A DNA stretch of 64,000 nucleotides from Vermamoeba vermiformis (GCA_045837725.1 JBEWZL010000278.1:310001-374000); one strand, 5' to 3'; shown: positions 2,396 through 57,437, counted from the first letter of the stretch. The notes: generated from the letters alone by a model not told the origin. A program made the numbers and translations.

Positions 2396-5300
2396 TCAGT
2401 ACACGTGACTAGTGGCAAGAGGTGGTGGTATCTGGTACTTACGCGAAGTGACGGGATTGAGTGCGGCATCAGATCCACTGTTCAAGTACGGCGTGTTGGT
2501 AGCACGTATGACGGGACGAGGGGCAGGGGCGGGGTTGTTGTTCATCGACCACAGGTACGCGAGCACCACTGTCGCAGTGCCAATCAATATAGCGAGCCAC
2601 CAGGCCATGCTCGAGGAGCTAGCGCGGCCCTTGTCGTCGATCACGAGCACATCCGATCCAGAACTCGAGCGCGAGGTGACGAAGATGTGCTCTGCTTGAC
2701 CTGAATCGAGGTCCAAGAACTCAATAGGCAAGCGACGTACAGACACTGAAGGGTCTACTGCTTTGAGTTCGTACGTCCAGGTGTGGGTGGCTGCATCCAC
2801 GCCCACGCGTCGGATCGAGATCAGCTCCGGATTGGTGTTGCGCACACTGAGCTCCTTCTTGGACTGCACTTCGAGCTGCACATTGGCATTGCGCGTGAGG
2901 AAGAGTTCGCGCGGTGCGAGTATCTTGAAGGAGGTGAAGAGCGTGAACTGCTTGTCCGCGGTGACGTGATAGCTCTGCGCGAGATCACTCACTGCTGCGC
3001 GCACGGTGATGGGCTCGGAGATCTTGTCGTGCTTGGTCGCGAAGGGCTTCACGATGCAGTAGTGCTGCAAGCTCTGCGGATTGGTGAAGTTGCGCACAAA
3101 CACGTTCTGCATCTGCTGCGCGGAGGTGAGCGAGCACTTGATGAGCAAGTGGTGCTTGATGGCGGCACTGTCCTCCAGCACCACTCCACTCGCATCGCGC
3201 GGCACCACGGGCATCAAGTACTGCGAGCCATCGGAGGTGAGTTCGTCGTTCTGCACGGCACTGGTGATGGGACTCTCGAGCTCCACACGCGCCACACGCA
3301 CGACTCTGACGTGTGTCCAAGTGAACACGCTGCTGTTGTGATACACCACGGTCTCACCCACACTCACTGCCACTGCTTCACCGGTGTTGCTGTCGATGCG
3401 CACAATGTCCTCATTGGCTGAAGACCACGTGTTCTTGTAGAGTGCCTTGTCCTGTGCGAAGGAGGTCGAGAACTGAATCACACCACCCACGTGCACGGTG
3501 GGGGACAGTGGGGCGATGGCATTCGACACGCGGATCTGCAGGTGATACTTGAGCACGGCCGCGGTCTGACTGGCAGTCACGGCAATGGTGGGCAGCGACG
3601 AGTGACCGCGCAGTTCGAGCAGTGCGTGGCCAGGTCTCAAGCCGCGCACAATAATGTAGCGCGATGTGGCTCTGTCCGTGTCGCTGGTGGCATTGAGCGC
3701 ACTGGCATCGTCGAGCAGCGAGGCAGAGCTGAAGTGTTGGGAGAGTGCCACGAGCTGTGGGTGACTGAGCTGCGAGTCCACGTGCAGTGCTTGCGGACTG
3801 AAGGCGTGGAGCACGTGACCGAGATCATCGCGTGCTTGGAGCTGCAGCAGCATGGAGGAGCCCACGGGGAGATCGTAGTAGACGAAGGGGAAGTGCGGGG
3901 GCAAGACGAGCGGCACGAGCTCAATGCTGCTGATGAGGCGCACACTGACGCGCACGAGCACGCTGCTGCTGGGGTCATCGCCACTGTTCTCTGCACCCTC
4001 TGAGGGATTGACAGCGTCATCGCGCTCAGTGATCAGAATCAACCAGGTGCCCACGGTGTTGTGCGTGGTGATCACTCCGCGAGCATTGACGTGCAGCTCC
4101 GAGGTGAGTTGTGCAGCACTGGCAGGCTGTTGAGTGCCGCACGTGACGCAGCTGAGCAGCTTGTACTTGAGCTTGGGATCGTTGTTCTTGTTGGTGTGCA
4201 GCTGATAGCTGGTCTGCGGGGCCAGGAACAGATGTGCAGGACTCAACAGCTTGAGCGGATCACTCACGTGCACCCACGCGGAGGCAACAATGGGCTCGAG
4301 CACGTGAGAGCGCGGTCGGATGAGTGCGGTGACATTCTCCACGCGCACTGAGACCATGGTGCGACCTGCGCCCACGCCTCGTCCACGCACGGTGACACTG
4401 CGCTCTTCGTCGAGAGTGACATTGGCGGAGTGGTAGATGGGCAACAGCTGCAGCACGGAGGGATCGACCACGGACCACTTGACGCGCATCCACTCGAGGT
4501 GTGTCCAGGCAGTGGGCGTGACTTCAAACATGTGCAGACGATGGTCAAAGTACGCGGTGAGCACGCCAGTCAAGCGGAAGGTGAATTCATTGCCCGTCTT
4601 GAGCACGTAGCTGTCCGCGTGTATCTTGAAGTCTTGGATGTAGCCGACGATCAGTTCAATGCTGTCCTCGGAGATGATCACGTGACGATTCACGGTCTGA
4701 TCCCACACCGAGCAGTGCACGCGCAGACGAGTGCGACCCTCAACCAGGGCTGTGACCGCCCCTGAGGTCTTGTCTACCAGGGCTACAGTGGTGTTGTCGA
4801 CTTGGAACACAATCTCCGAGGGCACGGGAGGACCACCGCGGAGTGCAATGTGGTACTGACTGCCCACCACCATCACGTGCTGCGGGCGAGGGTGCAGTTC
4901 GAGGGGCGGGAACACGTGAATGGTCTTCAAGCCTGTCACGTAGCGGGGTTGCGCCACCTTCTCATCACGTGGACTGGCACGTGCAGTGACACGCGCGACA
5001 CCGAGCTTGAGACCTCTAGCGAGCCACGTGTTCTCAGTGCGGTAGTCGTGCGACATGTGCGCGAGATCTTCAGCGCGAGCAGGGGCAATGTCAATGCTGT
5101 CGCTGTCGATCAGCAGCTGCGTGTCGATGAAGCGGTACTGCGACTGATCGAACGGCTGTCCATTCATGTCCAAGAGATCGACCAGCACGGGGATCTGATC
5201 GCCGATCTTCACCATGTCACGTGATCGCAGTTGTACGGCGTGAATGTCCGAGATTTGAATCTGGCTGAAGGAAGGCTCCGAGCCAGTCAAGCACAAATCT

Positions 5301-8300
5301 ACCAGGGTCAACTTGACGTGTCCCGGTCTGAGTGGTGTCACGTGGATGACATTTGACCCGAATTGGTAACTGATGTTCGCGACAGTGGTGTCGTTGACAG
5401 TGAGCTGGAAGTAGCCGCTGCCGCCGAGTGCGGTGATGGGCACGGCGTTGTGCGGGTGATTGAACAGCGACAGACGCGGGGGTTGTGCTTGCACATTTCT
5501 ATATAAGGTCAATTCAATGTCACGTGTCAACTTCTCCGTGGTCGAAGCTGTCCAGTAGGGCATTTGAATCTTGGAGGCCGCGAGAGTGTCGGGATCATAG
5601 CCCACCACGCGAACTCGTGCAATCACTGAACCTGTGGCACGTGGCAGTCAGTACGAGAGATTGCCTTATTTGGATGCGTACCTTCTTTGAGGGCCAAATT
5701 GAACAGCCGTCCGTGTCTGTAGCTGTGAGTGTCTAAACATGGGTGTTAGTACCTCCGGTGGCATTACCAAAGTAGGCAAGTGTCGTACCCTTGATGAGCT
5801 GAGCAATGAGCTGACTGCCCTCGGTGTACAAATAAGGAAATCTGGGTCTGTTAGCAGCGAGCAGATCAATGCTCATGAGACCACTCGCCTCGGTGACACT
5901 CCACTCCACATTCAGCGAGGTGAAGTTGGTGAACTTGCGACCAGATCTGTCGTACAGATACACTTCAAACTCGATCGATTGGTTGTTGCGCGTCAAGAAT
6001 TTGGTCGGGAAATTTCCGAGCATTTCACGAGTGACTTCGTGATTGGCAAGTGGCAACATGGAGACAGCTGTGACATAATAAGGTGAGTGACAAGCGTGAC
6101 AGGTGTCAAAGCCGTACCTTCAGTGCAGGCGAGGGGCAGGTCGTTGCGGTCAATCTTGTTGGGGTGTTCGAGCACGGGGAACAAGAAGATGTGTTGCGGC
6201 AGTTGACAGCTGAAGTGGAACTTGCTCGTCACGCGCAGAGGGCGAGGGTGTGCGGCACTGCCCGAGTTGGTGACCTCCACAGTGATGTCTTGATCGCCGA
6301 GCTCCAAGCACGTGATCGAGTAGGCGCGGTACGGCGTGTTGGCCTTGAGCTTGTGAATGGCGACAGCATTGGGCTGTTGGGGCAGCAGTGCCTCCGTGGT
6401 GTGGCCCGAGGACTCGTAGGTCCAAGGATTGGGTCCGCCCTCCAGCAGCACTATGGCACTGGAGCCCAGTGTGACCAGGGCAAAGTCACGTGGCCAGACA
6501 ACGCGCAGAGGCTTGAAGCTGAACACCGTGACCTCGATGCGGAGATTCATGTAGTGCACGGTGACTGTGGTCTGACCCTCGCGCAGTGCACGCAACACAC
6601 GGTGCGAACAGTGCTGACCAGCGCCAGTGCTGGGGAGAGGTGCGAACACGTGCTCGTCTTGCACCTCCCACACGAAGGGCAGGGCGGAACAATTGTCGTA
6701 GGGCACGTTGTTCTGATCGTAGAGCTGCACGGAGAGTGTCAGCGTGCTGTCAACTTGACACTCGAACTCGGAGTTGGCGAATTCAATTCTGTGCGGAGTA
6801 GACACGTGAACGAGCACGTGATCGCGATTGATGGGATTGCGACTGTCACTGGCATGCACGGTGACTGAGCCCGTGGACTCCGCGACGAGTCTGCCGTGAT
6901 TGTTGGAGATGAGCTGCGCATTCTGGGCAGTGGCGTGCGTGGCAGGACGTACGAGCACCACACTCTGATCGGTGCTGTACCACTCGTAGAGTCCTGTGCC
7001 ACCCACGGCAGTCAATGTGAGCTCGTGGCCCCAGCCCTGCACATCGCGCACACGTCGCACATTGACATTGGTGATATTCGGCTCAATGCTGTCCAACTTG
7101 CCGCTGTAGTAGTTGAGCCAGGCCACGTGATTGTGGTACGCGAGATTGACGTGTCGCACGCGCGTGTTGTCGTGTGCTGTCAACTTGACGGGTGCAGTGA
7201 TGATGACGTCACTGCGCGTGAGGAGTGGCGGTGAGGGCTGGTACTGCGTGGCGGTGTAGCGGTTGCGGATCTGTTCCAGCGCGACCACAATCTCCGTGGC
7301 ACCCTCTTTGACAGCTGTCACGTGGTGTTGCGCGCTGTTCTTGGACTTGCCGAGCACTTGGAAGTAGTCGGCACTGAGCTGCACGTTGAAGTCGAGGTCG
7401 TCAATGTTGTAGATCTTGTGCCCGTCCTTGTCGTACACCTCAATCTGCACCACGTACTCCCAGCCACTGATCAAGTAGCTGCCGCTGCTGGTGTGCGCAT
7501 CGAGCACGTGACTCTTGTTCTCACTCGTCTCCAACTGCTTCGGAGTGATCTTGAGCGCGAGATAGGCCGGCAGCACCACGACGAGTTCACTCCACGCGTT
7601 GTTGTCCTCCAGATCCACGTACTGCGCCGTGACGCGTGTGGCACCGACTTGCTTGGCCGTGACGAGACCCTGCTGACTGACCTCTGCCACTTGATTGTTC
7701 GAGGTCGTCCACAAGTACAGTCCTGCCGTGCTCGGATCCAATGGCTTCAAGGTCTCTTTGGCGTAGCTCATCAGCGTGTACTGGATCTGCGTACCTGGCA
7801 GCACCCAAATAGTGGTCGAGGGTGCCAACAAGAGGGGTTCGCGCACTGCAATCGTCACTTGCGCGGTGGGCACGGGGCCAGTCATGAACGGATTCACGTA
7901 CTTGGTGAGGCGCGATGAGACGCGTGCGCGGCCAGTGTTGAGTCCCTGCACGAGCACGATACTCGACTGCTTGCCTTCGTCCTCTAAGCGCAGCAATGCC
8001 TCGCTCACCTCGATCGAGCTCTCGCGGAATCGCACCATCTTGAGCACTTGCGCCACCGCACTGCTGGCAGTAGCTTCGGTGTCAGCGCGAATAGACCATT
8101 CATATTCGAGGCCCTCTAAGCTCGAGAACAAGTTTCCTTCGAGATCGAATGCTTGGATCTGCAGAATTTCCGTGTCTTCTTTGAACATGGTGCGTGTAGT
8201 GGTGAGGATGTCAATCTTGACTATATGGTCCACATAGATCTCGCAGCGCAGCAATCGACCGCTCTGCAAGTGCTCGCCCAACAGCCACACATTCTGACGG

Positions 8301-8709
8301 CCTTGCGACACTGTGCTTGCGGCGCGGATCTGGATCTTGGTGCCGCATGTGTCGAGCTCTTTAATGTCCACTACACCTTCTCTGCTTAAGCTCCTGTAAT
8401 GGCACCGAAATTAGCCAGTTGACGTTAATTAATTTTCGCCGATCGCATCCACCGCCAAAATTAATAATTTAAAATAAAAAATATCTGTGGCTCACGAGAA
8501 TTATAATATTGTACGAATAATTACCATTTGAAACAGCCATTATAGGCCTCAATAACATAGCTGACTTTGTGATCGTGGGGCAGCAAGACAGAGACCGTGC
8601 TGATCGAAATATCAGTGCCTACAGTGGAGGAGAGCTGCGCACTGATGAGCTGACTAGCGCACAGCACTAGTAGTAATATAGTTGCGTAGTATCGCGTTGA
8701 ATTGCCCAT
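2396..8709 (-). CDS. NUP210: Nuclear pore membrane glycoprotein 210 (gp210), spliced
   Basis: Signal peptide MGNSTRYYATILLLVLC, then YVIEAYNGCFKW, LRCEIYVDHIVKIDILTTTR and QAFDLEGNLFSSLEGLEYEW. Many Ig-like (BIG2) WxSSN motifs, one C-terminal TM helix and a short tail. Built from ORFs 8521-8742, 5993-8371, 5733-6059 and 2396-5626. Confidence 0.92.
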
Positions 8710-9725: not shown

Positions 9726-12700
9726 CTAGCGCACTTTGAATATGCTCTGCATGAAGGTGAGGAAGCGTTCTGCGTACTCATTGGGCGGCAGGGCACTAAT
9801 CTCGTGCTAAAAATAGAACAACCAATCAGCTCACAGCACAACAATCACTCGCAGTACGTACTCTGGCGTATTTGAAGGACTTGAAGGTGCTCTCGAGCAG
9901 TTTGATGGCAGTGAACTTGACGAGGTAGTCGATGATGCCCATGTAATACACCTCGCCTCCCTGCGCTGCGGGCCATCCACCGTCACTCACCTGCGCATCA
10001 CGTGACACCTGCGCTGATTGCTGCGTGATGCCGAGCAGCAGCGAGTAGTCCATCACCCCCTGTGCCTCCAAGAACTTGCAGTCACGTGACAGCGTGCCAA
10101 TCAGTCGCTGATGCAGTGCGGGGTGCAGTTCTACGATGCGATCAAAGTCCAAGTCTTTCATGGGGGCACCGGGCTTGCGATCTGTGCGGTGACACGTGTC
10201 AGTGGGGTGCGTGTCACAACGAGTACCGTACCTTTCTCAGCGGTGATTCTGCCCGCCACGGAGCCCTTGAGATCGTACGACACGGTGATGTGCTGCGCGG
10301 TGGTGAAGACTGAGCGCATGACGAGGAAGTGGTGCTCCTTGCTCTTGTTGTCTTTCAGCTGCATCAGACCCAGGAACGGGGCTGGTGGTGGCATCGGTTA
10401 GTGCTGTTGAGGGGCAGTAGTAGTGTCTCACTTACTCAGCAGAGTGGGTCCGGTAGTCACGTGATCGTAATACTTTGCCAACATTTCGCGCAAAGTTTCA
10501 GCCTCGCTGGCACTGATCGTCTTCAACAAGAACTGGCCGTCGCTCGAGTAGAAGAACATGGAGCCACTCTTGCCGTAGCTGCCTTGTTGCGACCAGCCAC
10601 GCCACTCACCTGCGAGCAACCACGGCCAGATCATGCCTTCGAGACCGATCGAGCTGATCAGATCTGTTTCTGAAATGCCAAACTTGTTTCTGATCGCGCG
10701 CCATACAGTCGGAGTGAATATCTTGACGTTATAGAAGGTCATTGGTGCCACTGGATCGCCGTTCTGATCCGCACTGAGCTGCAGCGGATTGGAGGCAGGC
10801 CAGTACGGGGTCTGATCTGAACGCTTTTCACTGAAATCACTCGACACGATCGGTCGGTGCGCCTCTGCACTGTCCACCGCTAGCTGCATTGCAAACATCA
10901 AGCTGATCATTATATTGAAGTGCGGGTGTCCTGGAAACACCACGTGACCAGAGGGTGCGGATGTGTTGCGCGCACCAGCACGTGACTTGCCGTAGAGCAG
11001 CGCGTGCACGAGCTTGCTGGCGAGATTGGAGTTCAGATAGGTGGTGTAGGTGAGCGGTGCAGTGAGGGGCTGCAGCAGTGCGAGGGCAGCTTCAATGCGC
11101 TCGTGTCGCCGGTCCATGTTGATCTTGAGCGCGCGCAGCCACTCCACCACTCCGAACAGCACTGCAGTCACGTGATCGACACTCACGCGCATGTCATGCA
11201 GTGGCACGCACTGAGGCAGTCGCGCAGTCTCACGTCGCGGGTACTTGCGCTTGTCGAGCACGTAGGACGGGGCAGCGAGTCGGCGCTGATCGAGTGGTGT
11301 CTGACTGAGCTGATCGGCGATGTACAGCGTCAAGTAGCCGAGTCGTGTGCGTGCCTCCTCAGTGCCGCGCAACAACGTGCCCATGGTGGCAATGTAGTCC
11401 TTGAACGGCACACCCTTGGGGTCAGTGCTCGTGCCCTGGTAGAAGGAGTGGTGCAGGGTGGCATAGAGCCACTCGACCACATCGGGCCCATTCGCTGGCT
11501 GTGAGTAGCCAACGGGTCCTAACACGTAGCGATAACTGTGCAGCTCGTACTCACCCGAGGGGGACTTGCACTCTGCGCGATCGATGAGCGACCATGACTA
11601 TATGAGGCAAGTGACACGTACCTTGGAAGGTGAGGTGATGCGCACTGACCTCACTCTCGCTCAGCTTGGTGTCGCGTGCAATTTCAGCAATCTCCGCGGG
11701 AGATAGCGCCGTGTTCCGTGCGACAGCAGAGAGGAATTGCGTGTACAAGAAGTCCGTGCCCTTGGAGAGTCCATCGCTCACACTCCTAAGCACGTGATCA
11801 GCACGCACACGCACACACACGATAATGGACAGTACGTACTTGGTGAAGGTAGCCGCAGCGACTTTGACGGCACTCGAGTCACTGGTGGTCTTCATCTCCA
11901 CGAGCTCTCTGTTCTCGTAGCAGTGCTTGCACACGCGTACTGGATGAATGTAGCCCAATCTGACAGCGATCAGTTAGTTACTAGCGGCATTATTGCACCA
12001 CGACGTACTTGGGCAGAGGCACTTCCTTGTCACTGCACAGCGCACACACGACATTGCCACAGCCGCGACAGTGGTGTCTGCGGAACAGCAGCGTGAAGGG
12101 TGCGGCACAGATCTTGCACTGCGGGGCCTTGTCATCGGAGACCCACTGTGGTCTGGGCAAGGTGTTCACTTCACTCAGCAGATTGCTCGGCAGTGCACTC
12201 GGGGCAGGGGTCGCAGTGCCACTCGTGGTGCCAGCAGTGCCCGTGGTGGGATAGACGAGCAGCGCGTCCTTGAGTATCTCAACAAAGTCTGCATTCACTT
12301 GCAGATTCATCTTGCGCAGGTAGTCGTACGAACTCTCGACATGTTGACGTTGAAATCCCTTGGACACAAAGTAGAGAATGATTTTTTCACGGTCTTTGTC
12401 GGGCTGTGGCACGGCAGCAGCGAGATTGTTGGTGTTGATGAACTGATTCAGATCGGTGAACTGTGTCGTGTAGTGCTGCGGCCAGGACTGCACTGCTGTG
12501 TGTGACATGACTGGCGAGTACTGCACTTGCGACGACACGTTGACAGGTGTGGTTGACAGGTGTCATTGATACGCTCATCGGAGGCATGCTCTGATAGTTG
12601 ACAGTGCACGGATCACACGGGTCACACGAGGCCGCATAATTGCCCCAGGGATTGCTCGGCTGTGGCGTGTAACAGCTGTCTGGATACGCCGAGTGCTGCA

Positions 12701-22782: not shown

Positions 22783-24948
22783 ATGGCAGCACAGGAGGGT
22801 ATGGGACCTCCGCCACCAGGCTTGGAGGGAGCGCATCAAGCGGCTCAATATCAATACTATCAGTTCTATGGCTCGCAAAGGATGGTATTTGACGGAAAGC
22901 GAGTGCGAAAACGCATCGCAAGAAAATTTGTCGACTATTCTTCAAGCGTCGTAAATCACTATACGGTATGTTTAATATTTGTGGTTCCATTGCATGGTTT
23001 CAACTACTACCCAATTTGTTTTGCCTGGAAGATAAAGAAATATATTTTTATAATTATTTAACAATAAATCAATCGGCTCGTTTTTGTTGGATTAATCCAT
23101 TAATATTATGTATTGCGTTTTAAAAATATGAATATTAATTTTTGTTTACAATGAAGAGTGCTATCACTGATCGGGATTACCGTGACTATGAAGCCCTACA
23201 GCCTCACGACAGCTTTATTAAAGAGGTACACTACATGTTTTTAGATATATCAGAGGCTAACTTTCGAATAGATGATGTCGCCACTCGCTTACTTGCACAA
23301 ACCAGCGAACTGCATTGCCACCAAGTTCGTGCACACATCCACTAACATTGCGCGCTGTCCCATCAACGTCGTCACGGTATGTAATGCAGTAGTATTCCAA
23401 TGAGTCCTAACAGTGATTGCTGTGCAGTGGACACCAGAAGGTCGTCGATTGATCACTGGTAACTCCTCGGGCGAATTCACATTATGGAACGGATCTGCAT
23501 TCAATTTCGAGACTATTATGCAGGTACGCAGTGAATATTAATGCACGACTACACGCTGAGTACTGACACGTGTTGCATTCAGGCGCACGACAGTGCGGTG
23601 CGCACCATGATCTGGAGTCACAACGAGAACTGGATGATCACTGGCGATCACGATGGCGTGGTCAAGTACTGGCAGCCCAACATGAACTTTGTCAAAGCCT
23701 TCTCCGCGCACAAAGAAGCAGTCCGAGGACTCAGGTACGCATCACAGTCAGTTGTCACTTGGTCTAGCTGTAACTTTCTTTCGTATCAGTTTCTGTCCGA
23801 CCGACATCAAGTTCGCGTCGTGTTCGGACGATGTGACGTTGAAGATTTGGGACTTTGCGACGCAAGCACAAGAGAGCGTGTTGACTGGCCACGGTTGGGA
23901 CGTGAAAGATGTCAGCTGGCACCCCCACAACTCGCTCATCGTGTCTGGCAGCAAAGACAATTTGATTAAGTTGTGGGACTCGAAGAGTGCGCAGAACATT
24001 GCCACCATGTAAGTGACTCGAGAGGTGTGTATATGGTATAGTGTAATGCTGACCGAGTCGAAACAGTCACGCACACAAGAACACAGTGGTCGCAGTCAAG
24101 TGGAACAAGAACGGCAATTGGATTCTGAGTGCTGGACGCGATCAAATGCTCAAACTGTTTGACATTCGTACCATGCGTGAAGTGCAGAGCTTCAAAGGGC
24201 ACAAGAAAGAGGTGACCGGTATGTCACTATTATACTAGTAGTTCGTGCCTCACAACTAACAACATCAGCTTGCGCGTGGCATCCATTCAACGAGGGCTCA
24301 GTGGTGAGTGGAGATTTCGAGGGCTCCATTCTGTATTGGAATGTAGGCCTAGAGGAACCAGTCGGTGAGATCAAAGGGGCACACGAGTCGAGTGTGTTCG
24401 ATCTGGCGTGGCACCCTCTCGGTCACATTCTGTGTTCCGGCAGCAACGATCACACGACCAAGTTCTGGTGTCGCAATCGTCCTGGTGATCCGATGGACGA
24501 CAGGTACAACATGGGCACGGGCACTGCAGAGACTGATGAGGCTGAAGAGGAGATGAAGCAAGAGAAGGTCGAGAAGAAGCCGCAGTCCAAGATGAAGATC
24601 ACCGTGGTGCCTGGTCTGGTGGGCAGCGTCACCGATGACTCGCTCGCCATTCCTGGCCTCGGTGTGCCCTCGGTCACTAGTCCCTCGCCCAAGCCCGCAC
24701 AGTCCATCTATCAGCCCATCACTTCACCCAATTCACTGCGCATGTCTGGCGGCGGAATGCCAGTGCCAGCCAATTACACCGGACCCAATCCCAATCGAAT
24801 GCCCCCTCCTGGCATGCCTCCATTCGGTCACATGCCTCCACCGCCTGGATTCAACCCTACGATGCCCCCACCTCATATGCCACCGCCTGGCTTCAATCCT
24901 AACGGCCCCCCGAATATGGCACACCCTATGCCACCTCATCCCATGTAA
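22783..24948 (+). CDS. WDR33: Pre-mRNA 3'-end processing WD40 protein (WDR33/Pfs2/FY), spliced
   Basis: [77 protein letters not shown] and a Pro/Met-rich tail. Confidence 0.95.
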
Positions 24949-28416: not shown

Positions 28417-30313
28417 TTACTTGTCAGAGTGCGGTGACAAGAGGCCTCGCTTGCGGCCAGGACTGCTGTTGTTGTTGCCGCTGAGCTGGTTCAACACGGT
28501 GCTGTACTGCTGTCGTTTGCGCGCTACTTTAACGTGATTCTCGCCGTACTGTCGCGCCATTATCTTCAATTCTTTTTCAATGCAAATGATCGCTGATGAG
28601 CGGTCCTTGAGTCGCAAGTAAATTGTTGCGAGATTGCCATAGGTCTCAGCGAGCTCTCGTGCGCCCTCGCCGTAGTGTTTGTACATGATTGCGAGCTCTT
28701 GTTCCGCGATCTGTTTCGCCTCTTCAAAGTTACGACACGCGCACCACGCTGAGCTGAGGGTGTGCAGCACTGCAGCCTTGTCAACTGACTGAGCGTACTG
28801 GTCATCAGCATTCAATTGGTCCAAACACTTGGTGCAGTACTCGATCACCTTCTCGTACACGCGCAGTTCTAAATTAGGAAACAAAATGTCAAAAGTGTCA
28901 CTTTGAATGTCAAGACAAGCAGCTGACTCACCTAAAAAGTACAACGCCAATTGATGCAATGTGCGCACACCAGGCAATGCACTGGGCTTGGACGAGGCAG
29001 CAGCGAGCTTGGTCTGAATGTCATAGGCCTCGAGCAGTATCTGTTCCATGTTGTCGAGCTCTCGCTTGAACTTGTAAATCAATGCTTCGAGCTGCAAACA
29101 TTTGACCACTTGTTCGCTGATCTCACCGTGCTCGTTCTTGTACATTTGATTCACTTTCTGACACTGAATCAGCGCTTGTTCGTACGAGCCTTGACTCAAC
29201 AAGTGCTACATGCAGCTGTTAGTTCGTGTGCTAGTCATTGATCGAGTCAGGTACCTGTGCGATAGTGAACATGGTGGTTGACATCTCAGGTCTCTCTTGG
29301 CCCTGGTAGATTTCACTCAACAGCTGCAAAGATTTTTCAAGCAATTCTTGTGCCTTTTTGTAGAAGCCCTGTTTGGAAGAGTTAGAACCACTGATTGAAT
29401 AATAAACAGTGCTATTACGTACGAGTTTGTCTTGTATATCAGCCATCGTATTGTATGCTTGATATAGTGCTAATAAATTGTTTTTTCGGTCTTCTTCCCA
29501 AATACTATTCAAATTAGCGGTATTATTGCAATTGTTCGTAATATTTATGGACTAATGCTGCATACCTGGCAATCTTTTCAAATCGCGCTAAAGCCTCTTT
29601 AAATACTCTATTCTCGTAGTAATAATTGGCCAGTATTAAATGTGTTTCGACGAGCAGTTTGTTGTACTCGCTCATTGACACTTTTGACGGCTGTGTTGTG
29701 TCCTGTCATCAGTTAATATCACTCTATGCGTACAAATAAAGTATTATACCTCTATCAACAGTTGAATAATCAATACTGTGCGATCCACAGTTTCTACGGC
29801 GAGACGGATCGACTCTTCTCGTTTTAATCGCAACAAATAGCCCGCGTATTCTTTCAACAATCGCACAGTGATAATTGACTGTTCGCCATATTTGTTAATG
29901 CATTCTTGTATGCAGTCCTTCATCACCATCACGCACTTGTCGTATTCATTATTTTGCGCAAGTTCACTCGCTGAATTCAATTCAATTAAAAATTACATAA
30001 TTTTTTAGGCAATCAAATCGTTATATATAATTACTGGGTAGTATTTAGCAATTATTAAATAAATGTAGATTTTTTCTAATTAAATTAATTTGATTTTGTG
30101 GAGCAAATTGAATACAAAATCAGTTTTTATCCAACACATACCTTTTTCGTGTAATATCGCCACAATACCTTCTTCTTCAAGTGGATCTGACGTGTGATGA
30201 GGCCCAGATTCGTCACCAGGCCACAACTGCCCTAGCAGCTTCTTGATGCCAAGCACCAAGAGTGGTAGTGCGACGACAGCGGCACCGGCAGTAACATATA
30301 TTCTCTTGTCCAT
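28417..30313 (-). CDS. TPR-repeat protein (kinesin-light-chain-type TPRs) with an N-terminal membrane anchor, spliced
   Basis: Hydrophobic N-terminal segment. TPRs such as ELAETYGNLATIYLRL...KELKIMARQYGENH. Confidence 0.75.
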
Positions 30314-40823: not shown

Positions 40824-42485
40824 TTATTTACGGATGCAACCATTCTCTCGCGCGTATTTCTCCGCGTCAGCGTGGTGATAGTTGGCAGCAATGTCAGCCT
40901 CGTTGCCGTTCCAAGAAGCACCATTTTCATGCGCGTATTTGACGCACGCGAGATAACCATGTTTGGCAGCTTTGTACAAGGTATCGCCCCACGGACACCC
41001 CTCTTCATGCACATATTTCAAGCAGTCTACGTGTCCACCCTTCGCTGCGGTAACGCACATTCTCTCTGCCGGCCATGGACAGCCATGTTCGTGCGCATAT
41101 TGGAGGCACGCTAAGTGACCATTCTCAGTCGCTGCGAGTGTCGTGTTCTCATTCCATTGTGCACCGTGCTCGTGCGCGTATTTTAGAGCAGCCAAGTGGC
41201 CATACAACGCCGCCTTGTAACACGCCGAACCCCACTCGGCACCATTTTCGTGGGCGTATTTGAGGCACTCCAATTGCCCTGATTGGGCAGGACTATCGCA
41301 CTTGACTTCTCCCCACTCCAATCCGTTAGTGTGAGCGTAGATCAAACATTCCAAGTGCCCCTTGTACGCGGCATTCATGAGAGTAGCTTGGCTCCAAGCA
41401 CAGCCTTGTTCATGCGCATATTTCAACAGCTCCAAATTGCCCTGGCTCGCAAGACCAGCTGTAGTTTGATCATCCCATGGACAACCGTTCTGATGGGCGT
41501 AAAGAAGACAATTAAAGTGCCCATTCATTGCCGCGCTACTGCACACTTTGGCATCCCATTGGCAGCCCTGTTCGTGTGCGTACTTGAGACAATCGAGCCG
41601 TCCATGTTCAGCTGCCCTAGCGCAGGTCTCGGCGGTCCATTTCGATCCAGGTTGTTCGTGAATGTATTTCAAGCACGCCAAGTGCCCGCCTTCAGCTGCC
41701 AGCGCACAACAAACTTCAGAGTCCCACTTGCAGCCATTTTGGTGTGCGTATTTTAGACAATCCAAGTGGCCGTGCTGCGCGGCTGTGAAGCAGACAAACT
41801 TGTCCCAGGGGCAGCGATTCTCGTGCGCGTACTTGAGGACCGCGAGGTGTCCTTTCTCCGCTGCCAACTGACACGCGTTGTAATTCCACCCTGTTTTGTT
41901 CTGGTGCGCGTAACGCAAGCAATTGAGGTGTCCTCGCCCAGCTGCAAGTTTGATCACGAATGAATGTACTGGGCGGCCTGGTTTGTGCGCGTATTTCAAG
42001 CAGGAGAGGTAGTCCCAGTAACTGAAGTACTGCTGAAATAGCTCTCGCCCAACCTTGCGTGCAACGAGGCCTAACTTTTGCTTGTAAGTGGCGCAGTAGC
42101 TGTGCAACTGTTTTGACGTTGATGAAAGAAATGCGAGCTTAATGTATTGAAGATCAGGCTCGCTTATTCGCCATTCCCAAGAAATGTCTTCGGTCTTACT
42201 CGTCAGATGCTGTAGTATTATTCCCCACACATCAGATGGTAATTCAGCAGTCTATAAATCGTCGTAAGTAAAAGTAAAGAAGATCTGATCGGCAAAAGAC
42301 TTTAAACAGACCACTTTCGTTATCACTGTGATCTGACTAAGTTACTGTTTCACTGTGTTAACTTGATAATCGTCTTTTTTTGACTAATCATGATTATGAA
42401 GTGGATTGCTGCCCAATAATTTCGAAATTAACGCTTCATTTTGAATAAATTTAACTTTTCTCCTACTCACTTTTTTACTCGCCAT
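40824..42485 (-). CDS. Ankyrin-like repeat protein (CLKYAHENGCPWD type) with an F-box-like N-terminus
   Basis: About 15 repeats of AAxxGHLxCLKYAHExGCxW in one 1.4-kb exon, with LPSDVWGIIL at the N-terminus. The short first exon MASKK at 42485 is tentative. Confidence 0.85.
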
Positions 42486-49423: not shown

Positions 49424-50240
49424 ATGGAACTTGAAGTTTGGCTCATACTGTCTCTTATTCTTGTGCTTCCAACATTACCCTTTATAACTTACTGGGCCAA
49501 GGAGCGAACATTGATCGAACAAGACCAGCCTTCTTTACTGTCGTGGTAAATGGATTTGGATCATATTTTTTTTTGCGCTCAGTGAAATGCAGCTCGCTTA
49601 AGAGTCGCACATCTTAGTTCGTGGTCGATTAATTTTTAGAAATTATTAACTATTTATCAGGTTTCAGCCCGAACGAAAGTCCTATTGGAGCTATCTCAAT
49701 CCTATTACCTGGTAACTAGCCAAGTATTATTATTCTGTCTTTGTTAACTTATCACCTAGGTGGACTCCAAAGGAGCCGGGATATGTCACTCGCTTGAACG
49801 AGTTAGCAAACAAACTACCTGTTCTGATCCAAGCTTTCATTGCTGTGGTGGTCTTATTCTTCATTTTAAAACTGCTTATTCAAATAATTCTTTTCGTACT
49901 CGGCTTCCGCAGCGATGGGGTCGCCAAAGGTAACTACTATTTCGACCACTACTCGACGATTTATCGATGCCTTTTTGGCTTTAGGTTCGTATGGCTCCTC
50001 GATGATGAGCAGAGAAGCAATTGCACGAGGAGGTGGAGTAGCGAGGGGCGGAAGAGTTGCCAGACTTCAATCAGCTGGCACTTCAGGAGGTTAGTAGTAC
50101 ACAGTGACGATAATCACCTTACCAATTCATTAGGTCCGCTCGCACTTCTAGGAACATTACTGCCCCTTGGTATCATCGGAGCACTGTTTTATCTGTATTA
50201 TGATACGAAGTCTGCTCGAATTAAACAGTCAGCTTGGTGA
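49424..50240 (+). CDS. IFI6/IFI27-like (ISG12 motif) membrane protein, spliced
   Basis: Spliced LGFRSDGVAKGSYGSSMMSREAIARGGGVARGGRVARLQSAG matches the ISG12 consensus. Upstream exons reconstruct in frame from ATG 49424. Confidence 0.75.
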
Positions 50241-50473
50241 ATAACATACAGAGTACCGAAAGAATTGGAGAATGGGACTCGAAGTGAACGCACAAGCCTC
50301 TTTCGTTGTGGATTTAAAGTATTTATTCGCTAAGGTTATAAAAATTCGCAAAAAACAAGTAAAAAATGTGTTTGAAATGTTCCTTTTGAGATCCGCAGAG
50401 GAAGTATTCGAACGTTATATTACAGATTTCTATCGCTATAACTCTATATTCAACAATCTACAATAAGTGGTCC

Positions 50474-53400
50474 TTAAGGCAGTAGGATAGTCTTCAATGC
50501 CTCCTGTGAAGAGAGATCCATTAAGAACTGACCAAGATCCACGAATCAATAGAACTTACCTTGGATTCAAGCAACTTCTTAATATAATTGGCATCACCCT
50601 TATAGTCAGTTTGTACAAAGTCCTTGATGCTCAATTTCGATTCGTTGAGCATCGCAGTCAAGCGATCAGCACCGCTGTCATCGAGCACTTTACCGAAGGC
50701 TTCAGCAGCAATCTTTTCAGCAGCTTCAGTCTCCAAGAGCGGTTGCAAGAGTGTGTGCAGGTCGTTGAGAGTGAGAACACCTTCAGCGATCACGTGGCCA
50801 AAGAACTGACCGACGTATTTGTACGTGAAGGGAATATCAATGTAAAAGTCTTCAACCAACTCCAACACCATTGAAAAGCTGAGTGATTGAACGTAAATAA
50901 GCCTGCTTGACGAACAATGTCTGTGCTACTTACCCCTTCTCGAAGTGGCTCTTGTTGAGTGCATTCTGTTTGTAGAACTCGGTCAACAACCTCATCACGG
51001 CATCGCAGTCCTTCTCTTTCTTTTCCAAAGAGAATACAATGGCCTAAAGTGCGTTATTAGCGTTGTTTGGGGAGTGGTAAATATGTCACTACGTACTCTG
51101 TTGACAAACTCGTCGTAAGTCGTGGCCTTGAACTCGCGCAGACATTGAAGTGCGTCTTCAATATCACCGCCAGTGAGGTACTCTTCGAGCATCAGATCAA
51201 TCTTGGCCTCGTTGTCACCAGAGGGTTCATCAGAGCCACCGTGTTCTTCCTCCTCATCAGACTCATCCTCGGGAGGAGGTACAGCGCTCATCGAAGCAGC
51301 CAAAGATCTCTTCGGTTGGAACTTGGCGGGGACTTCTTCCTCGTCTGATTCGTCGTCACGTGGCTATAATTACATGACATTAGCAACAAGCTCTACTGGT
51401 TCAAGTGGTTACTTACAATCTCCATGGAAGCAGTGATCTTGATGTCACGCTTAGGCTCGTTCTTGCCCGGACGAGGCTTGTACGGCGAGGGTGTGGGACT
51501 GGGCGAGCTGTCATCTGACGTGGACAAGTAGTTGAACATGTTGGCTTCACGCGGGTTAGTAGACTTCTTGCCCGTGGAAGGACCATCCTTGGACACGTAG
51601 CGAGGAGTGCTGCTCGTGGACTTGGCAAGATCTCGGCCACTCGGCGAGACATCCTTGCCACCGCGGCCCTTCTTGGCACTTCCACCACGGCCTGTGTCAC
51701 GACCTCCGCGACCACTGCCAGGGGTTGAGGCACTAAACAGCTGTTAGAGAACAGCGCCACAAGGCAATGTTAGAAACTTACCCTCGTCGTCCCTTGCCAG
51801 CAGGGGTTGACGTGTTGCTGCCAACAGTCTCCCAGCCTCCTTGCGAGGCTTCTTGTTTTCGCTTGGCGCGCTCTTCTTCTCTGCTCTTGGCAATTTCACG
51901 ATCGATTTGCAATCGTTGTTCGCGCTCTTGTTGCTTGGCTTCACGGTGAATCTCGCTGATGGTCTTGGGACCTTCAACTGCTTGCGGTGATCGAGGGATC
52001 CACTTGGCTTTGCGCAAGTCAACCAAGTCCAACAACATAAAGTATGATCGACGGTCCAAGCCCTTGTTCTTTGAAAGCTGAGCAACAGTGCTGTTTGAAC
52101 GATTAATGTCTATTCATGAACGAGTGGTTAAGTGAATCAAACTTACTGGAAGTACACGTCAACAAGCTGACTGTCTTTGTCAGTCTCCAAAATCTTGCCA
52201 ACAGTACGCAACAATTTGCACAACAATTCCAAGTTCTCAACGGGAGGAATCTTGTCGGTGGTCTCGGGATTTTCCGTTCGTAATTCTCCGAGCAATTGGA
52301 TAACGCAGCCGTGAATAATCTTCGAGGCCAACAACTTCTTTTTGTACAATTCTCCGACGAAGTTGATGTTGCCCAACATTCTCTTCTTGGCAATGATTTC
52401 CAACTCTTCAGTGGACAACACCTTAACATTGGTCTCTTGCAAGAACGGTTTTTCTTCGAACTCGCGTTGACACTCGTTCAACAAGAGTCGCTTGAAGGTG
52501 AACTTGATGTTCGGGTCAGTCGAGTTCGGGTCTTCAAATTGCGGGAACTGTTCAGCGAGAATGACGCACAGATCCGCGTACATAGTGCTGAAGTTGTGCT
52601 CGATGACGGCCTTATCGAAGATCAATTTGATTACACCGCGCAATGCATCGAGGTCTGTAATGCCAGCTCCTTCTTTCAAAATTTGTTCGGTGATCGACTT
52701 GAAATTCTCACGCGTCAACTTGTTCAACAGACTAATCAAGGCATAAGTAACCAAGTATTACTAATAGATTGAATAGCTTACCTAGTGATCTTCTTGTACA
52801 ATGCCTCGTGGTTGACAGGCACTTCATTGCCAGAGCTCCACTTGCCCTTGATGTCAATCTTCTTCTTCGGTGTTGACACTTTGTCATCCTTGGCAGGCTT
52901 CTTTCGTGTATCTTGACGCTTCTTGCTCTTGTTCTATTGGAGCATAGTTAATATCGTGATCATCAACAGATATTTCGTAGTACTTACGGCAATCAAGTGG
53001 GTCTTCTCGGGCTGACGTTTGCTGTCCTTGGCAGGAGTGGTGCCCTTGACAATGCTAGTGATGTTAGTCATGCCTTCAGGACGCTCAGTGCACAACGGTT
53101 GATAGCGCAACAAGAACTCGAGGTCGTAGACTTTCTTCTTCTTGACGGGCTCTTCTTCGACTTCAGGCTCGGACTCTTCACCCTCCTCATCGAAGGGGCT
53201 CACGTCATTGTAATGTGACACGATGACAGTTTGAGTGGCCTTGTCGTTGATGAAGAACGAGGTGTAGTTTGATGCGAAGCCGTAGTTAATGGCAATCAAC
53301 TCCATCTCCTCGTGGCTGCGGTGTCTCTTGGCAGCATTGACTGTACACCACACAATTAGCACGGTGTTTCCTAATTTAGTAATAACGAAGCCAACGTACC

Positions 53401-55596
53401 ATCTTCATTCTCTTCCTCGTCTTCCATCTCTTCTTCGAGATCGAACAATCGTTCAGTGGCAGTCATCAAGTGAATGGTGTTGTCGTTAATGCTGTCAGTG
53501 GTGTCGAGGTCGAGGGTGACATTGAACTTCTTGGATCTGTCGCCAAGAATGGCCTTTAATGTCACGTCAAACTTCTTTTGATCGGGCTCTTCTTCCAAGA
53601 ACGCATAAACAGCCAAAAAGTCTGTAGGAAAAACATTAAATCCAATTCTAACAAATTCATATTAAGTCTTTGCGTACCTCCGCTGAAGACAAGAGGCAAT
53701 TGTTCAGGAGCAGGTGTAACAAACTCCTCCAAGTCACCCCAGTCCAATGTGACTTCATCGAGCATAATTTGCAAACCACGACGCACTTGACGACGAACTT
53801 TAGCCAAGACCAGATCTGGTGCTACTTCAAATTCAGCGTAACCGAATGACATGCGTGCAATGGAATTGAGCTATAAATAGCAATTTGTTAGCGCAACGGT
53901 AAATACGAAATACAATGTAGCCATGGAAGGTAACGACTCGAAATAATGATTTCGAAACGTTTTCGAAAGAATAAATCAAGTCTTAATATTACTTTTAATG
54001 CTGCTATTAACCCATAGTACTTACGACATAATAGTTGGCTCCAACACCAATGCCCAAAGGAAATACGGTGTAACTCTCAGCGTGGCTGGACACCAACGAC
54101 AACAACGTGCCTGAGCTTGAAACCTATATAGTATTGAGTATTAATATATTTTCTTGTAAACTAGGCATTCCAAACGAAAATCTTTTCAACGGATCTGAGC
54201 TGGATCTGCTTACTTGAGCGGTAGTGATCAAAAGCATTTGAATGGGCACTTGAGACTCTTGATTTAGTCTAGGAATGCTATAGACATCCTCCAAGGAGAC
54301 GTAGAGCTCACGCGAGCCAGACTTGAAATCTTTCTCCATCTGACCTCCGTGCACGTACTCGAGCGCTGCCTTCATGTTCTCTTCGCTCACTGAAACGCTT
54401 TCTTCTTCGAATACACGATAAAGAATGTTGGACAGCACGAATAAGTTGAAGCGGGCCTAATACAAGCAGTACATTAATTTCAAAATTCTGATCTCGATCT
54501 TGAAAGGGACATTTAAATGCATGGCATATTATTAATGCACTTACTCTTCGTTGAGTCTTAAGCTCTTCGAGTGCCACAGCGACAGCGCGCTGAACCAATT
54601 CATAATCAGGTTGTTGAGCGCTATCAACGACGATCAAATACTCGCAGGCTTCAGATTCGTCTTTAATCAGCTCTTCGAATTGAGGTTGGAATGCAATCAT
54701 CAATGCAGTGCGGTTGACCATCTTTTTGATCTCTTTATAACATAACGGGGGTTAATTGTGCACAATAATCACAGATGTAGATCGATCAAAAAATTTGTCG
54801 GCGTATATAAGCTTGATCAAATTTACAATATTTTTAGAGAGTAGTATAATTGCTTACCTTCGTATTTTTCGACGAAGCAATGAGGTAGAGAATGGCTAAT
54901 CGGGAGCTTAAATTTTACATCCAAAACCAGATCTGCATCAGTCAACGGTTGCGTATTGGCGGGGTCTAATGTCACGTTGCAGATCTTATATGAATTATCC
55001 AAGTGTTTGAGAACGACAGGGTGGGTCGGGGAAGTCACAGCTTCGATGGGCAAGAACGTCTGCACATTCACATCCAAACCCAGCTCGTATTCGGACAAAA
55101 CTGCTGGTTTCGGCTGATTGTCTTTGTATTCGTGTGGATATATGCGCGGTGCAATCGTAGTCGGCAGAACCAAGCGCAAGGTATCGCCATCGCTCAATAA
55201 TTCGGTGACGCAGGTCACTTTGATCACGATGGCGGTGTTCGGGGCCAGCTTGGAGACATTGCATACTAATACGTCCGAGCAATCATATTTAACATTGCTT
55301 TCTACGGTGCTATTTGTCGCTTCTTTGAATTTTGAGCTCGCTTCTTTTTTCTTTTTGATTTCAGATGCGATGCGCTTGCCACCGACTACGGCTTCATAGC
55401 CGCAGATAGTGCCCAAGTCATGCAACGGAAATTTTAAAGCTGTTTTCTTCGAGATGCCAGTGCTGGGAGCTTCGTATTCTTGCTCGATGGTCAGTTTGGC
55501 TTGGAAGTTCCAGATCCGACCTCGGATTTGGGTTCTTTTCAAAGGCAAAGGTTGATCGTCGATCGCCCAAATGCTTGTTTTAACCTTTCCGTACAT
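50474..55596 (-). CDS. VIT-vWA (VWA5-like) fused to eIF4G (eIF4E-binding motif, MIF4G, MA3), spliced
   Basis: VIT: LPLK..I.G.I...QAKLTIEQEY, FPL....ICGYEA, LRLVLPTTIAPR. A degenerate vWA follows, then NYGFASNYTSF, YDLEFLL, MIF4G (SLLNKLTRENF, LIFDKAVIEHNFSTMYADLC, FKRLLLNECQREFE, KKRMLGNINFVGELYK), GPKTISEIHREA and MA3 (MLEEYL...EDALQCLRE, DFYIDIP). Confidence 0.85.
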
Positions 55597-55750
55597 ATAG
55601 CGGTCTATTTGGGCGTACAGATCAACCAGATCGTGTTTTTCAAATGAACAAAAAAAATAAAAATAAAAAAAATTGCGGCGGCGAGAAATTTATTGACAAG
55701 AAGAACGCGAAAATAATGACCATACCCGCTGTACTATAAATTAATAGAGA

Positions 55751-57437
55751 ATGTTTAATAGGCCTATGTTTGAAGAAACGTAAGTTGTCCCGATCAGATT
55801 CGTTTGACTCGCATCCGATCGAACCCATTTATTGTAATTCATACGTTTATTATTTTTACTGTGGATGATATTGCATCATTATTGTGATCTAGTCGCAGGA
55901 TGTATTCTAATTATTATTTGTGGATCTGATAGTACGCGGCCGAAATGGACTCGCGAGCAAATAATGCGAAACACACCGTCACGAGCAGACGGTATTTCAT
56001 ATGAACTAGAAGCACAGCGAAGGCGATATTACGCGAAGATTATACAAGAGTCTGGCATATTATTGAAGTTGTAAGTCAAAATAATTTTTATTTATTATTC
56101 TACTGCATTGTAAATCATCAATAGTGCCCATATATAATTCAATAAGCATAATACTATAATTTAAAAATTATAATGCGCCTTTGGAACGCGATTGGTCCCA
56201 AAGCGAATTATATTATCTCGCGCCACAATTATTCAATTAAGACCTCCTATTTAACCTTAAAATATTATATTAATATGATGTATATTATTTAGTCCACAAG
56301 CTACCACGATAGCAACAGCTACAGTATACATGCACCGATTTTTTATGGCTCACTCAATGAAGCCAATAGATCCGATCGTAAGTCCAGCACATTGTCGTAT
56401 AATAATACGCCTATACTAACCCCATCATATAGTTACTGGTCTCTACCTGTTTATATATTGCAGGCAAGTCTCAAGAAACTATTCGCAAAGCTAGCGATGT
56501 TATAAACACGACGTACAAAGTGGTCACGGAAGATCGATTGAGACTAGGCAAAGTACGAATTAGAGCTCATACTATATTATACCACTATATTATAGCACTA
56601 TATTAACCTTAATGTCGTATTTGCAGGAATACACAGCGTTCAAAGACGATGTGATTGAAAATGAACAATATTTCTTGCGGTACCTCGGCTTTGATTTGCA
56701 CGTTGAATTGCCGTACAAATATCTCTTAAATATGACCAAGTTCCTCAATGGTACGTATTGCTCGATAATACTATAATTAGTACCTTTGACTGACGAACAA
56801 ATTTTAATTAGTCCCGCCCCACACTGTACATACTGCGTGGACATTGTTGAATGACAGGTAATTACTACTACCATATAATATAATGCCTATAGTCTTACGA
56901 ATGAATTTGCTCAATTTTCTAACATTGGTATTTATTTTGCAATTAGTTTCAGAACCACTCTATGTATCGAACACCCGCCATATCTGATCGCATGTGCGTG
57001 CCTATATTTAGCCGCCAAGTTCACAAACGACTTTACATTCGAACAAGACTTGCAACACTACGAACACTATTGGTGGGAGAACTTTGGGGACTCGGCGGAC
57101 ATGAACACCATTACTCGTACGTCTACAACACTATTTGTGTTAACTATGCTCATATTGTATTGTAGAAATCAGTTTAGATATGTTGCAGTTGTATATTGAA
57201 GAAGACATGCGAGTTCCACCGAGCGAACGAAACGAAGTCAAATCTGAGAATCACGTTGTGGCTAATGAGCAGCATTTGGTTAACGGTACCATCAATAATA
57301 ATACGAATAATGTTAAGAATGAAGATAGTGGCAGTAATAGTAATAATAGTGTAAATACAACCAGTAGTAATAGCGCGGATGCGCCTAAAGCAGCCAAACC
57401 GCGGATTAATGTCACTGTAAAAACGTTAAAACAATAA
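55751..57437 (+). CDS. Transcriptional cyclin (T/K/L/Q group), spliced
   Basis: TPSRADGIS...IQESGILLKL|PQATTIATATVYMHRFF, CLYIAGKSQET and EQYFLRYLGFDLHVELPYKYL. Confidence 0.9.

Follow-up and report, generated by a model that had tools for sequence, protein, structure and literature searches.

A VIT-vWA module fused in frame to eIF4G in the amoebozoan Vermamoeba vermiformis and its relatives

Does the scaffold of the cap-binding complex always begin with a disordered region? By the usual view, the N-terminus of eIF4G is a disordered region for docking, whose contacts with PABP and RNA underpin the closed-loop model. A stretch of DNA from Vermamoeba vermiformis (GCA_045837725.1, JBEWZL010000278.1:310001-374000; 64,000 nucleotides (nt), called the window hereafter, with positions counted from its first letter) raises this question anew: a preliminary description made from the sequence had read there, on the minus strand, an eIF4G with a VIT-vWA module at its N-terminus, the VWA5-type end motif of the module, an acidic linker and an eIF4E-binding motif (YDLEFLL) lying together in one open stretch. 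We found that the VIT-vWA module and the eIF4G (with eIF4E motif, MIF4G and MA3) are truly fused in frame and are transcribed and spliced as one mRNA.

The coding model, built from coordinates alone (55596-50474, minus strand), has 15 exons and encodes 1374 amino acids (aa) with no internal stop (Table 1). It starts with the ATG at 55596 and stops with the TAA at 50476-50474, precisely the outer limits that had been proposed, and its frame is open throughout; all 14 introns are GT-AG, 49-154 nt in length, with donors GTAAG or GTACG. The stop-to-stop open stretch around the junction is 52934-53404 (minus strand; 156 aa), within which the true exon is exon 7 (53340-52988). This exon carries the end of the VIT-vWA module (ELIAINYGFASNYTSFF, 53293-53252), the acidic linker and KKKKVYDLEFLLRYQ, whose Y-x4-L-Φ core is at 53128-53108, and neither a stop nor an intron lies between them, so that the proposed uninterrupted run from the module to the eIF4E motif holds and falls within exon 7. 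The further claims that the flanking introns are GT-AG and keep the frame into MIF4G, and that MA3 follows, are borne out by the 15-exon model. Read from its N-terminus, the protein has a VIT domain and a vWA whose metal site is dead, an acidic linker of 26 aa, YDLEFLL, then MIF4G, an RGG-rich region and finally MA3.

Evidence of transcription came from the contigs of two public runs, X1 and X3, which belong to different studies and were aligned over 49900-56200. We took these runs to be RNA because RNA is what would yield joints without introns at GT-AG borders; their origin is an inference from those joints, and the RNA label itself is a guess. In the X1 and X3 contigs 12 of the 14 predicted introns are removed exactly (introns 2 and 10 were unseen there), and depth is alike over both halves of the gene (~5-10 in X1, ~1-5 in X3). 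One X1 contig of 1759 nt passes through exons 10-9-8-7-6 into exon 5, which therefore places MIF4G, the eIF4E motif and the post-vWA region on one spliced molecule; the check by RNA across the gene that the preliminary description had called for thus found spliced contigs crossing the junction between VIT-vWA and eIF4G. Two 1371-aa proteins, P0239 and P0240, come from gene calls on contigs no longer than 4474 nt, which must be intron-less because the genomic span of the coding sequence here is 5123 nt. P0239 is 93.7% identical to model aa 1-1374 from end to end (P0240, 93.6%), and its sequence agrees with the model at each of the 14 exon joins, the two unseen in the X1 and X3 contigs among them.

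The N-terminal half has the parts of a VIT-vWA module. Pfam VIT (PF08487) matched exon 1 with E 5.4e-15 (56 bits vs. a cutoff of 26.5), which places a VIT domain at the N-terminus, and VIT_2 matched the same exon with E 2.3e-6; VIT also matched P0239 (52 bits), and in an AlphaFold2 model of P0239 the strands of the VIT region span residues 19-261 at high predicted local distance difference test (pLDDT) values. VWA_3 scored 24.7 bits on P0239, below its cutoff of 27, yet positions 4-155 of the 155 in the profile were covered. Despite this sub-cutoff score, a vWA fold after the VIT domain is supported by a predicted fold resembling ITIH1 and by alignment of model aa 15-592 with the standalone VIT-vWA protein P0071 (783 aa; 150 bits by phmmer; a second standalone protein, P0069, gave 59 bits). 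The hidden Markov model scan suggested in the preliminary description therefore came out above cutoff for VIT, MIF4G and MA3 and below cutoff, with the whole profile covered, for VWA_3.

The metal-ion-dependent adhesion site (MIDAS) of this vWA is degenerate. Its D-x-S-x-S motif reads DSAQQ and its TDG motif reads TTA, identically in P0239 and in a metagenome contig with the same locus (L001; ~82% nt identity, same exon structure), so the MIDAS is not intact. Judged from these aligned residues, the metal site is lost in the window's lineage, and this loss argues against the classic metal-dependent capture of ligands by vWA domains.

The AlphaFold2 model covers P0239 aa 1-678 and was made from a 50-sequence alignment (mean pLDDT 79.4; predicted TM-score 0.80; pLDDT of at least 90 in 333 of 678 residues). 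Residues 14-606 are folded and residues 607-678 are disordered, save for a short helix at 635-640 on the eIF4E motif. Behind the vWA, the model has strands at 490-533, helices at 536-557 and 564-581, and strands at 588-594 and 599-605 (pLDDT 84-93), and the conservation of this region extends to Physarum P0020 and to P0070, which are described below. Its motif AINYGFASNYTSFF aligns to the consensus ...YGLxSxxTSFVAV of 50 VIT-vWA proteins, and also to standalone proteins, and in the model makes up a strand and the last part of a long helix; the C-terminal helices and the closing strand with the YGLxSxxTSF motif are thus both present (helix 564-581, strand 588-594). Because AINYGFASNYTSFF aligns to the consensus and forms this helix end plus strand, the fusion point falls directly after the module's last conserved element. 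In the ITIH1-based naming used in the text of PMC10539598, this region would correspond to the helical bundle and the 'VITpt2' strand.

Foldseek against the Protein Data Bank (PDB), with the whole module as query, returned ITIH1 first (6fpz_A, E 1.9e-33, TM-scores 0.50/0.55 over ~659 columns; 6fpy was similar). A look-up of P0239 in the ESM Atlas returned clusters of ITIH, VWA5A and bacterial VIT/vWA proteins (scores 0.78-0.80), which we treat as leads only, and it showed no large cluster with the fused architecture. The second Foldseek match was PDB 9e5c chain 4s, from the 96-nm repeat of the Trypanosoma brucei flagellar microtubule doublet (E 4.2e-29), an intracellular, cytoskeleton-bound instance of the VIT-vWA fold.

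By its predicted domains, the C-terminal 740 aa form an ordinary eIF4G core of the plant and fungal style. YDLEFLL lies ~80 aa upstream of MIF4G, the same spacing as in other eIF4Gs, and at the level of sequence it has the form of an eIF4E-binding motif. A short Y-x4-L-Φ could occur by chance; here, both its position and the alignment of its flanks fit eIF4G, with ~40 aa around the motif (KKKKVYDLEFLLRYQ...PEG) aligning to conventional eIF4Gs in a 69-protein set (P0017, E 4.9e-6; P0042, E 5.5e-5). Across 12 fused proteins the position of the motif is kept in all; nine carry a canonical Y-x4-L-Φ within 220 aa upstream of MIF4G, and in the remaining three the aligned residues read YDLEFML, YTPEFIL or YTADFMQ. 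Pfam MIF4G (PF02854) matched exon 9 alone with E 1.5e-34 and P0239 with E 2.8e-37 (residues 725-952). MA3 scores low in the window because introns split the domain: against a cutoff of 23.2 bits, one piece reaches 19.8 bits (E 8.1e-4) and the other 25.4 bits (E 1.5e-5). Intact on P0239, it follows MIF4G at residues 1183-1292 (E 6.4e-23). None of the Pfam matches of P0239 (VIT, VIT_2, VWA_3, MIF4G and MA3) falls in the counterpart of exon 11, the RGG-rich linker, which was itself unscanned. The W2 domain (HEAT-3, PF02020) had no match in P0239 at E ≤0.01; W2 belongs to animal eIF4G only and is absent in plants and fungi.

The VIT-vWA module is under purifying selection. Among the listed coding differences between the runs and the window, 32 of 36 are synonymous, as are all nine of those in aa 1-618; another 19 differences exist beyond these. 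In L001, the exon-7 junction is open and indels occur in multiples of three only. The ratio of nonsynonymous to synonymous rates (dN/dS; window vs. L001 by the Nei-Gojobori method, dS ~0.8) is 0.049 overall; the 588 codons of the VIT-vWA module and the 245 codons of MIF4G both give 0.037, and because its dN/dS equals that of MIF4G, the module is as constrained as the eIF4A-binding core.

We found that the fusion is shared well beyond the window's genome. A word-based search with MIF4G gave 68 eIF4G matches, none of which (0/68) came with a VIT or vWA domain in its precomputed Pfam annotation; Physarum P0020, one of the 68, later gave a sub-threshold VIT match. The same kind of search with the VIT exon gave one weak standalone match (P0069) and missed the fused relatives. 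With the whole model as query, phmmer matched aa 10-196 and 464-1350 to this Physarum polycephalum transcript (P0020, EukProt, 1170 aa), from which the vWA core (approximately model aa 205-462) is deleted and in which Pfam VIT is below cutoff (E 6.3e-4); P0070 (1155 aa, metagenomic) is built alike, with the vWA core likewise missing. When 1.84 billion representative proteins were searched with a profile built on the junction region, 2813 matches were obtained at E ≤0.001, and nine of the best 150 of these also contain the eIF4G part: seven long proteins (P0075, P0083, P0084, P0097, P0100, P0112 and P0195) and two fragments (P0016 and P0078). They include proteins of Protostelium nocturnum (P0083, EukProt), Pyxidicula operculata (P0100, EukProt), Polysphondylium violaceum (P0097, KAF2072657.1, a 'hypothetical protein' that UniRef names 'Type A von Willebrand factor domain-containing protein') and Acytostelium subglobosum (P0195, XP_012759673.1); the fused sequences are thus already public under uninformative names. 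When ten proteins of the fused family were scanned with Pfam, VIT, VWA_3, MIF4G and MA3 were all present in eight (P0239, P0222, P0083, P0084, P0097, P0100, P0112 and P0195), all but MA3 in P0075, which is a truncated record, and only MIF4G and MA3 in P0070.

The named fused species belong to two amoebozoan phyla, Evosea and Tubulinea (NCBI taxonomy). The search of related protists that the preliminary description had proposed therefore succeeded, finding the same architecture in Protostelium, Polysphondylium, Acytostelium and Pyxidicula among others, and the idea of a fusion peculiar to the window's genome did not survive, since at least four named amoebozoans and several metagenomic proteins share it. 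That description had also held that the novelty would fall if the architecture were already widespread, and by this measure it is lowered because the architecture recurs in public protein sets. The dictyostelid fused proteins have an intact MIDAS (VDCSESM ... TDG). The Cavostelium apophysatum eIF4Gs P0007 and P0247 (791 and 824 aa) are without VIT-vWA and start ~45 aa before the region of the eIF4E motif; so short an eIF4G may mean that the module was lost, that the isoform is a shorter one or that the transcript is truncated.

Two features of the matched sets stand apart from the architecture itself. The C-terminus of P0112 (EukProt 'gene4874-6080_t', 2188 aa) also bears domains of a prenylcysteine lyase and an amine oxidase, most likely because the gene model has run two neighbouring genes together. 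In P0001-P0005 (a JGI metagenome protein with an Isochrysis galbana fragment in its cluster, and Bidens and Musa proteins), the MIF4G region was matched twice in tandem, with two MIF4G stretches found by Pfam in P0001; these are either duplicated MIF4G domains or merged models.

Phylogeny of the module separates the fused proteins from the others sampled. The module tree held 63 of 130 near-complete rows (9/9 fused, the 40 best of 72 standalone and 14/49 with a long N-terminal extension), and one branch splits the nine fused rows from the 54 others with a Shimodaira-Hasegawa-like approximate likelihood ratio test (SH-aLRT) support of 98-99; within the fused set, the window groups with P0222 and Pyxidicula (100).

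We reason, with a probability of about 0.72, that this single nuclear amoebozoan gene is the lineage's eIF4G and that its folded VIT-vWA head acts as a metal-independent docking platform. A 600-aa folded module of the ITIH1/VWA5A type stands where the eIF4Gs of animals, yeast and plants have their long, disordered N-terminus, and, from what is known of these families, the helical Y-x4-L-Φ motif would bind eIF4E, the MIF4G and MA3 HEAT domains would bind eIF4A (and eIF3) and the RGG linker would bind RNA. The head would then most likely serve as a metal-independent platform for protein docking or self-association, through which the cap-binding complex would be linked to some partner. By the example of Dictyostelium Vwa1, one lead would be an SCF/F-box partner, and nothing links the Vwa1 partners to eIF4G; the partners that the preliminary description had named (an ATPase, a vault or a granule) are candidates only. 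In its history, the gene may go back to one early VIT-vWA fusion in Amoebozoa, made directly after the module's last beta-strands, with piecemeal decay thereafter: the MIDAS would have been lost in the window's lineage, in P0222 and in Pyxidicula, the vWA core excised in Physarum and P0070, and the module gone, or uncaptured, in Cavostelium.

A number of observations weigh against this view. The MIDAS is lost in the window's lineage, P0222 and Pyxidicula, and the vWA core is deleted in P0020 and P0070; the module has thus decayed elsewhere, and its full form is therefore not indispensable. In the MIF4G tree (71 rows from 92 MIF4G-bearing proteins, after 16 near-duplicates or partials and spans <150 aa were dropped), the backbone is unresolved and the fused proteins are not one clade, with four changes needed, of which the starred branches force at least three, and the non-fused Cavostelium P0007 (791 aa) nests beside the fused Protostelium protein with a support of 94. 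Holding the fused proteins together (12 rows plus four fragments of fused genes) costs 6.98 log-likelihood units and is not rejected by the approximately unbiased (AU) test (p-AU 0.383), a value that allows a single origin and does not show a clade. The eIF4E-, eIF4A- and RNA-binding roles are inferred from homology. Finally, raw RNA reads with the same species label (X21 and X23) number only 6 and 38; they are 95-99% alike, lie mainly over the 3' half and leave 52854-53697 without a read, and because they are few and mostly in the 3' half they show no continuity by themselves.

Could two adjacent genes, one for a VIT-vWA protein and one for eIF4G, have been wrongly merged by read-through, misassembly or an over-eager model? 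Such fusions are often annotation artefacts, P0112 looks like a merged model, and a contig across two genes is no proof of a single transcript. However, there is no in-frame stop between the halves, which share one exon, the junction is crossed by spliced contigs from two studies, a prokaryote-style gene caller returned one unbroken 1371-aa open reading frame on an intron-less contig, the L001 junction is likewise open with indels in multiples of three, and the same architecture appears in transcriptomes and genomes of at least five named species; a merger of two genes is close to refuted. It is also very unlikely that the VIT-vWA part is a decaying, functionless relic beside an eIF4G core that works alone, perhaps from an internal start such as Met574. 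The loss of the MIDAS in the window's lineage, the VWA_3 score below the Pfam cutoff, the deletion of the vWA core in Physarum, the absence of the whole module in Cavostelium and the raw reads lying mostly over the 3' half would all suit a relic, but the module's dN/dS of 0.037 equals that of MIF4G at dS ~0.8, the nine listed differences in aa 1-618 are all synonymous, AlphaFold2 folds the region confidently (333/678 residues at pLDDT of at least 90) and contig depth is alike over both halves.

It is rather unlikely, in our judgement, that the fused protein is a specialised paralogue serving a subset of mRNAs, a stage or a location, with a conventional eIF4G elsewhere doing the bulk of the work. 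Many eukaryotes have several eIF4G isoforms (as described in the main text of PMC5862402), Cavostelium has a 791-aa eIF4G without the module, and the module is partly dispensable in Physarum. Against this, the word-based search with the window's MIF4G gave no match above 47% identity among the matches listed, with the fused family as nearest relatives, and no second close paralogue was seen among those matches in collections whose contigs of >500 kb carry fragments of this gene; both are weak evidence. Beyond the eIF4G-with-docking-head reading that we prefer, a wider proposal is that, throughout Amoebozoa, the head couples the cap-binding complex to a partner system unlinked to eIF4F elsewhere, which we regard as unlikely as it stands; candidate partners, by analogy, would be an SCF/F-box ubiquitin ligase (compare Vwa1) or a cytoskeletal anchor (compare 9e5c chain 4s). 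If true, the head would replace the disordered PABP/RNA-binding N-terminus and would give the clade its own means to localise, dimerise or switch initiation.

We compared the window's protein with known systems. Canonical eIF4Gs (plant eIF4G/eIFiso4G, yeast Tif4631 and human eIF4G1) have the same order and spacing of Y-x4-L-Φ, MIF4G, charged or RGG linker and MA3, whereas their N-terminus is long and disordered with PABP- and RNA-binding boxes and that of the window's protein is a 600-aa VIT-vWA module (no search for PABP boxes was made here). VWA5A/BCSC-1 and Dictyostelium Vwa1 share with it the order VIT, hybrid, vWA, helical bundle and closing strand, as well as YGLxSxxTSF; in place of their ~100-aa C-terminal domain, as presented in the text of PMC10539598, the window's protein has eIF4G, its lineage has lost the MIDAS, and the fused modules branch apart from the sampled standalone proteins. 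ITIH1 (PDB 6FPY/6FPZ) is the best structural match over the whole module at a sequence identity of only 12%; it is a secreted protein whose MIDAS works and mediates its dimerisation (cited in the text of PMC10539598). PARP4, the vault PARP, likewise joins VIT-vWA to an unrelated intracellular functional unit, but in PARP4-like proteins the module is internal, and the module tree places the fused-eIF4G modules apart from these. Profile matches in which the module starts at approximately residue 600-850 are probably of the PARP4 type, and the window's protein is not a PARP4, with no Pfam match to PARP catalytic or BRCT domains on the window exons or P0239. Physarum P0020 and P0070 belong to the same family and have a VIT-like N-terminus, the post-vWA region, the LGLRYGLATRHT motif, KVYDSKFLL, MIF4G and MA3 as in the window's protein, in which the module is full rather than lacking its vWA core; model aa 464-1350 align at 279 bits.

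D. discoideum has seven VIT-vWFA genes (PMC10539598), and the text of the same paper reports that FbxwD, an F-box protein, and components of SCF co-purify with Vwa1; for Amoebozoa, Vwa1 is the one experimental lead to the partners of intracellular VIT-vWA proteins. The main text of that paper does not mention eIF4G or MIF4G, and its figure and supplements might differ. The preliminary description knew of no described eIF4G with this module, and our full-text literature search agreed: it found no paper combining MIF4G, VWA and VIT, and papers with MIF4G and 'von Willebrand' were unrelated by title or abstract. A 2018 survey of eIF4G domains across eukaryotes (PMC5862402) leaves vWA unmentioned in its main text, with S3 Fig as a place where it might be shown. 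A VIT-vWA eIF4G is therefore undescribed in the literature that we searched; the architecture could still be shown in Fig. 6 or in Supplementary Figures S4/S5 of PMC10539598. The eIF4G variant is real, Amoebozoa-wide and apparently undescribed.

A whole eukaryotic supergroup thus appears to have replaced, or preceded, the disordered region with a 600-aa folded module of adhesion type. The role of the VIT-vWA head is directly testable because the architecture occurs in genetically tractable dictyostelids, and the family offers a natural deletion set, with the MIDAS intact (dictyostelids), the MIDAS dead (window), the vWA core deleted (Physarum) and the module absent (Cavostelium). The answer may shed light on poorly understood intracellular VIT-vWA proteins such as VWA5A/BCSC-1.

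Table 1. Coding exons and domains of the fused gene in the window; intron 6 (53399-53341) falls within the span 53207..53621.
Feature	Position	Strand	Evidence
Whole coding sequence, 15 exons, stop included	50474..55596	-	GT-AG introns, open frame, spliced contigs, P0239 joins
Exons 1-5	55596-54858, 54732-54545, 54456-54214, 54123-54025, 53870-53678	-	coding model
Exons 6-10	53621-53400, 53340-52988, 52933-52782, 52731-52147, 52090-51782	-	coding model
Exons 11-15	51732-51417, 51363-51097, 51043-50934, 50878-50560, 50503-50474	-	coding model
VIT beta-sandwich, exon 1, aa 1-246	54858..55596	-	Pfam VIT, VIT_2; AlphaFold2 strands
Hybrid-like region and vWA fold, exons 2-5, aa 247-487	53678..54732	-	phmmer, VWA_3, Foldseek
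Degenerate MIDAS, D283-S-A-Q-Q287	54611..54625	-	MAFFT with standalone and fused relatives
Post-vWA strands, two long helices and closing strands, exon 6 and start of exon 7, aa 488-606	53207..53621	-	AlphaFold2
VIT-vWA C-terminal motif AINYGFASNYTSFF, aa 578-591	53252..53293	-	alignment to family consensus
Acidic linker, predicted disordered, aa 607-632	53129..53206	-	AlphaFold2 pLDDT <50 over 607-636
eIF4E-binding motif YDLEFLL (Y-x4-L-Φ), aa 633-639	53108..53128	-	sequence; AlphaFold2 helix 635-640
MIF4G (HEAT-1), exons 8-10, aa ~715-960	51985..52828	-	Pfam MIF4G
RGG- and Ser/Pro-rich linker, exon 11, aa 1028-1133	51417..51732	-	translation; repeats seen by eye
MA3 (HEAT-2), exons 12-14, aa ~1186-1295	50770..51207	-	Pfam MA3

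At the 3' end of the gene, the X21 and X23 reads carry a 1-base deletion at 50427 and a G insertion after 50466, and their joint at the last intron is shifted (50510/50564, with non-canonical ends, vs. 50503/50560), none of which was seen in the X1 and X3 contigs; these differences over 50427-50564 probably come from a related strain plus alignment slack. Upstream of the gene, a divergent expressed neighbour (55808-56800, plus strand; reads and a contig from 55808) begins ~200-250 nt from the eIF4G start; its weak Cyclin_N match (E 0.013) is below cutoff, and it may be a cyclin gene.

Elsewhere, two long open stretches at 2396-8410 (minus strand) match the NUP210 Ig-like domains 1-4, 6-7, 9 and 16 (Pfam) and, by these matches, are a nucleoporin NUP210/gp210 gene with few introns; they sit in a GC-rich part of the window (GC 0.51-0.59 over 1-8000). 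Rfam gave no match over the whole window. Other gene pieces are ordinary nuclear gene content, with Pfam matches to PIP5K, WD40, TPR and ankyrin repeats at 10428-11597 (minus strand), 24181-24948 (plus strand), 28417-29205 (minus strand) and 40824-42251 (minus strand).

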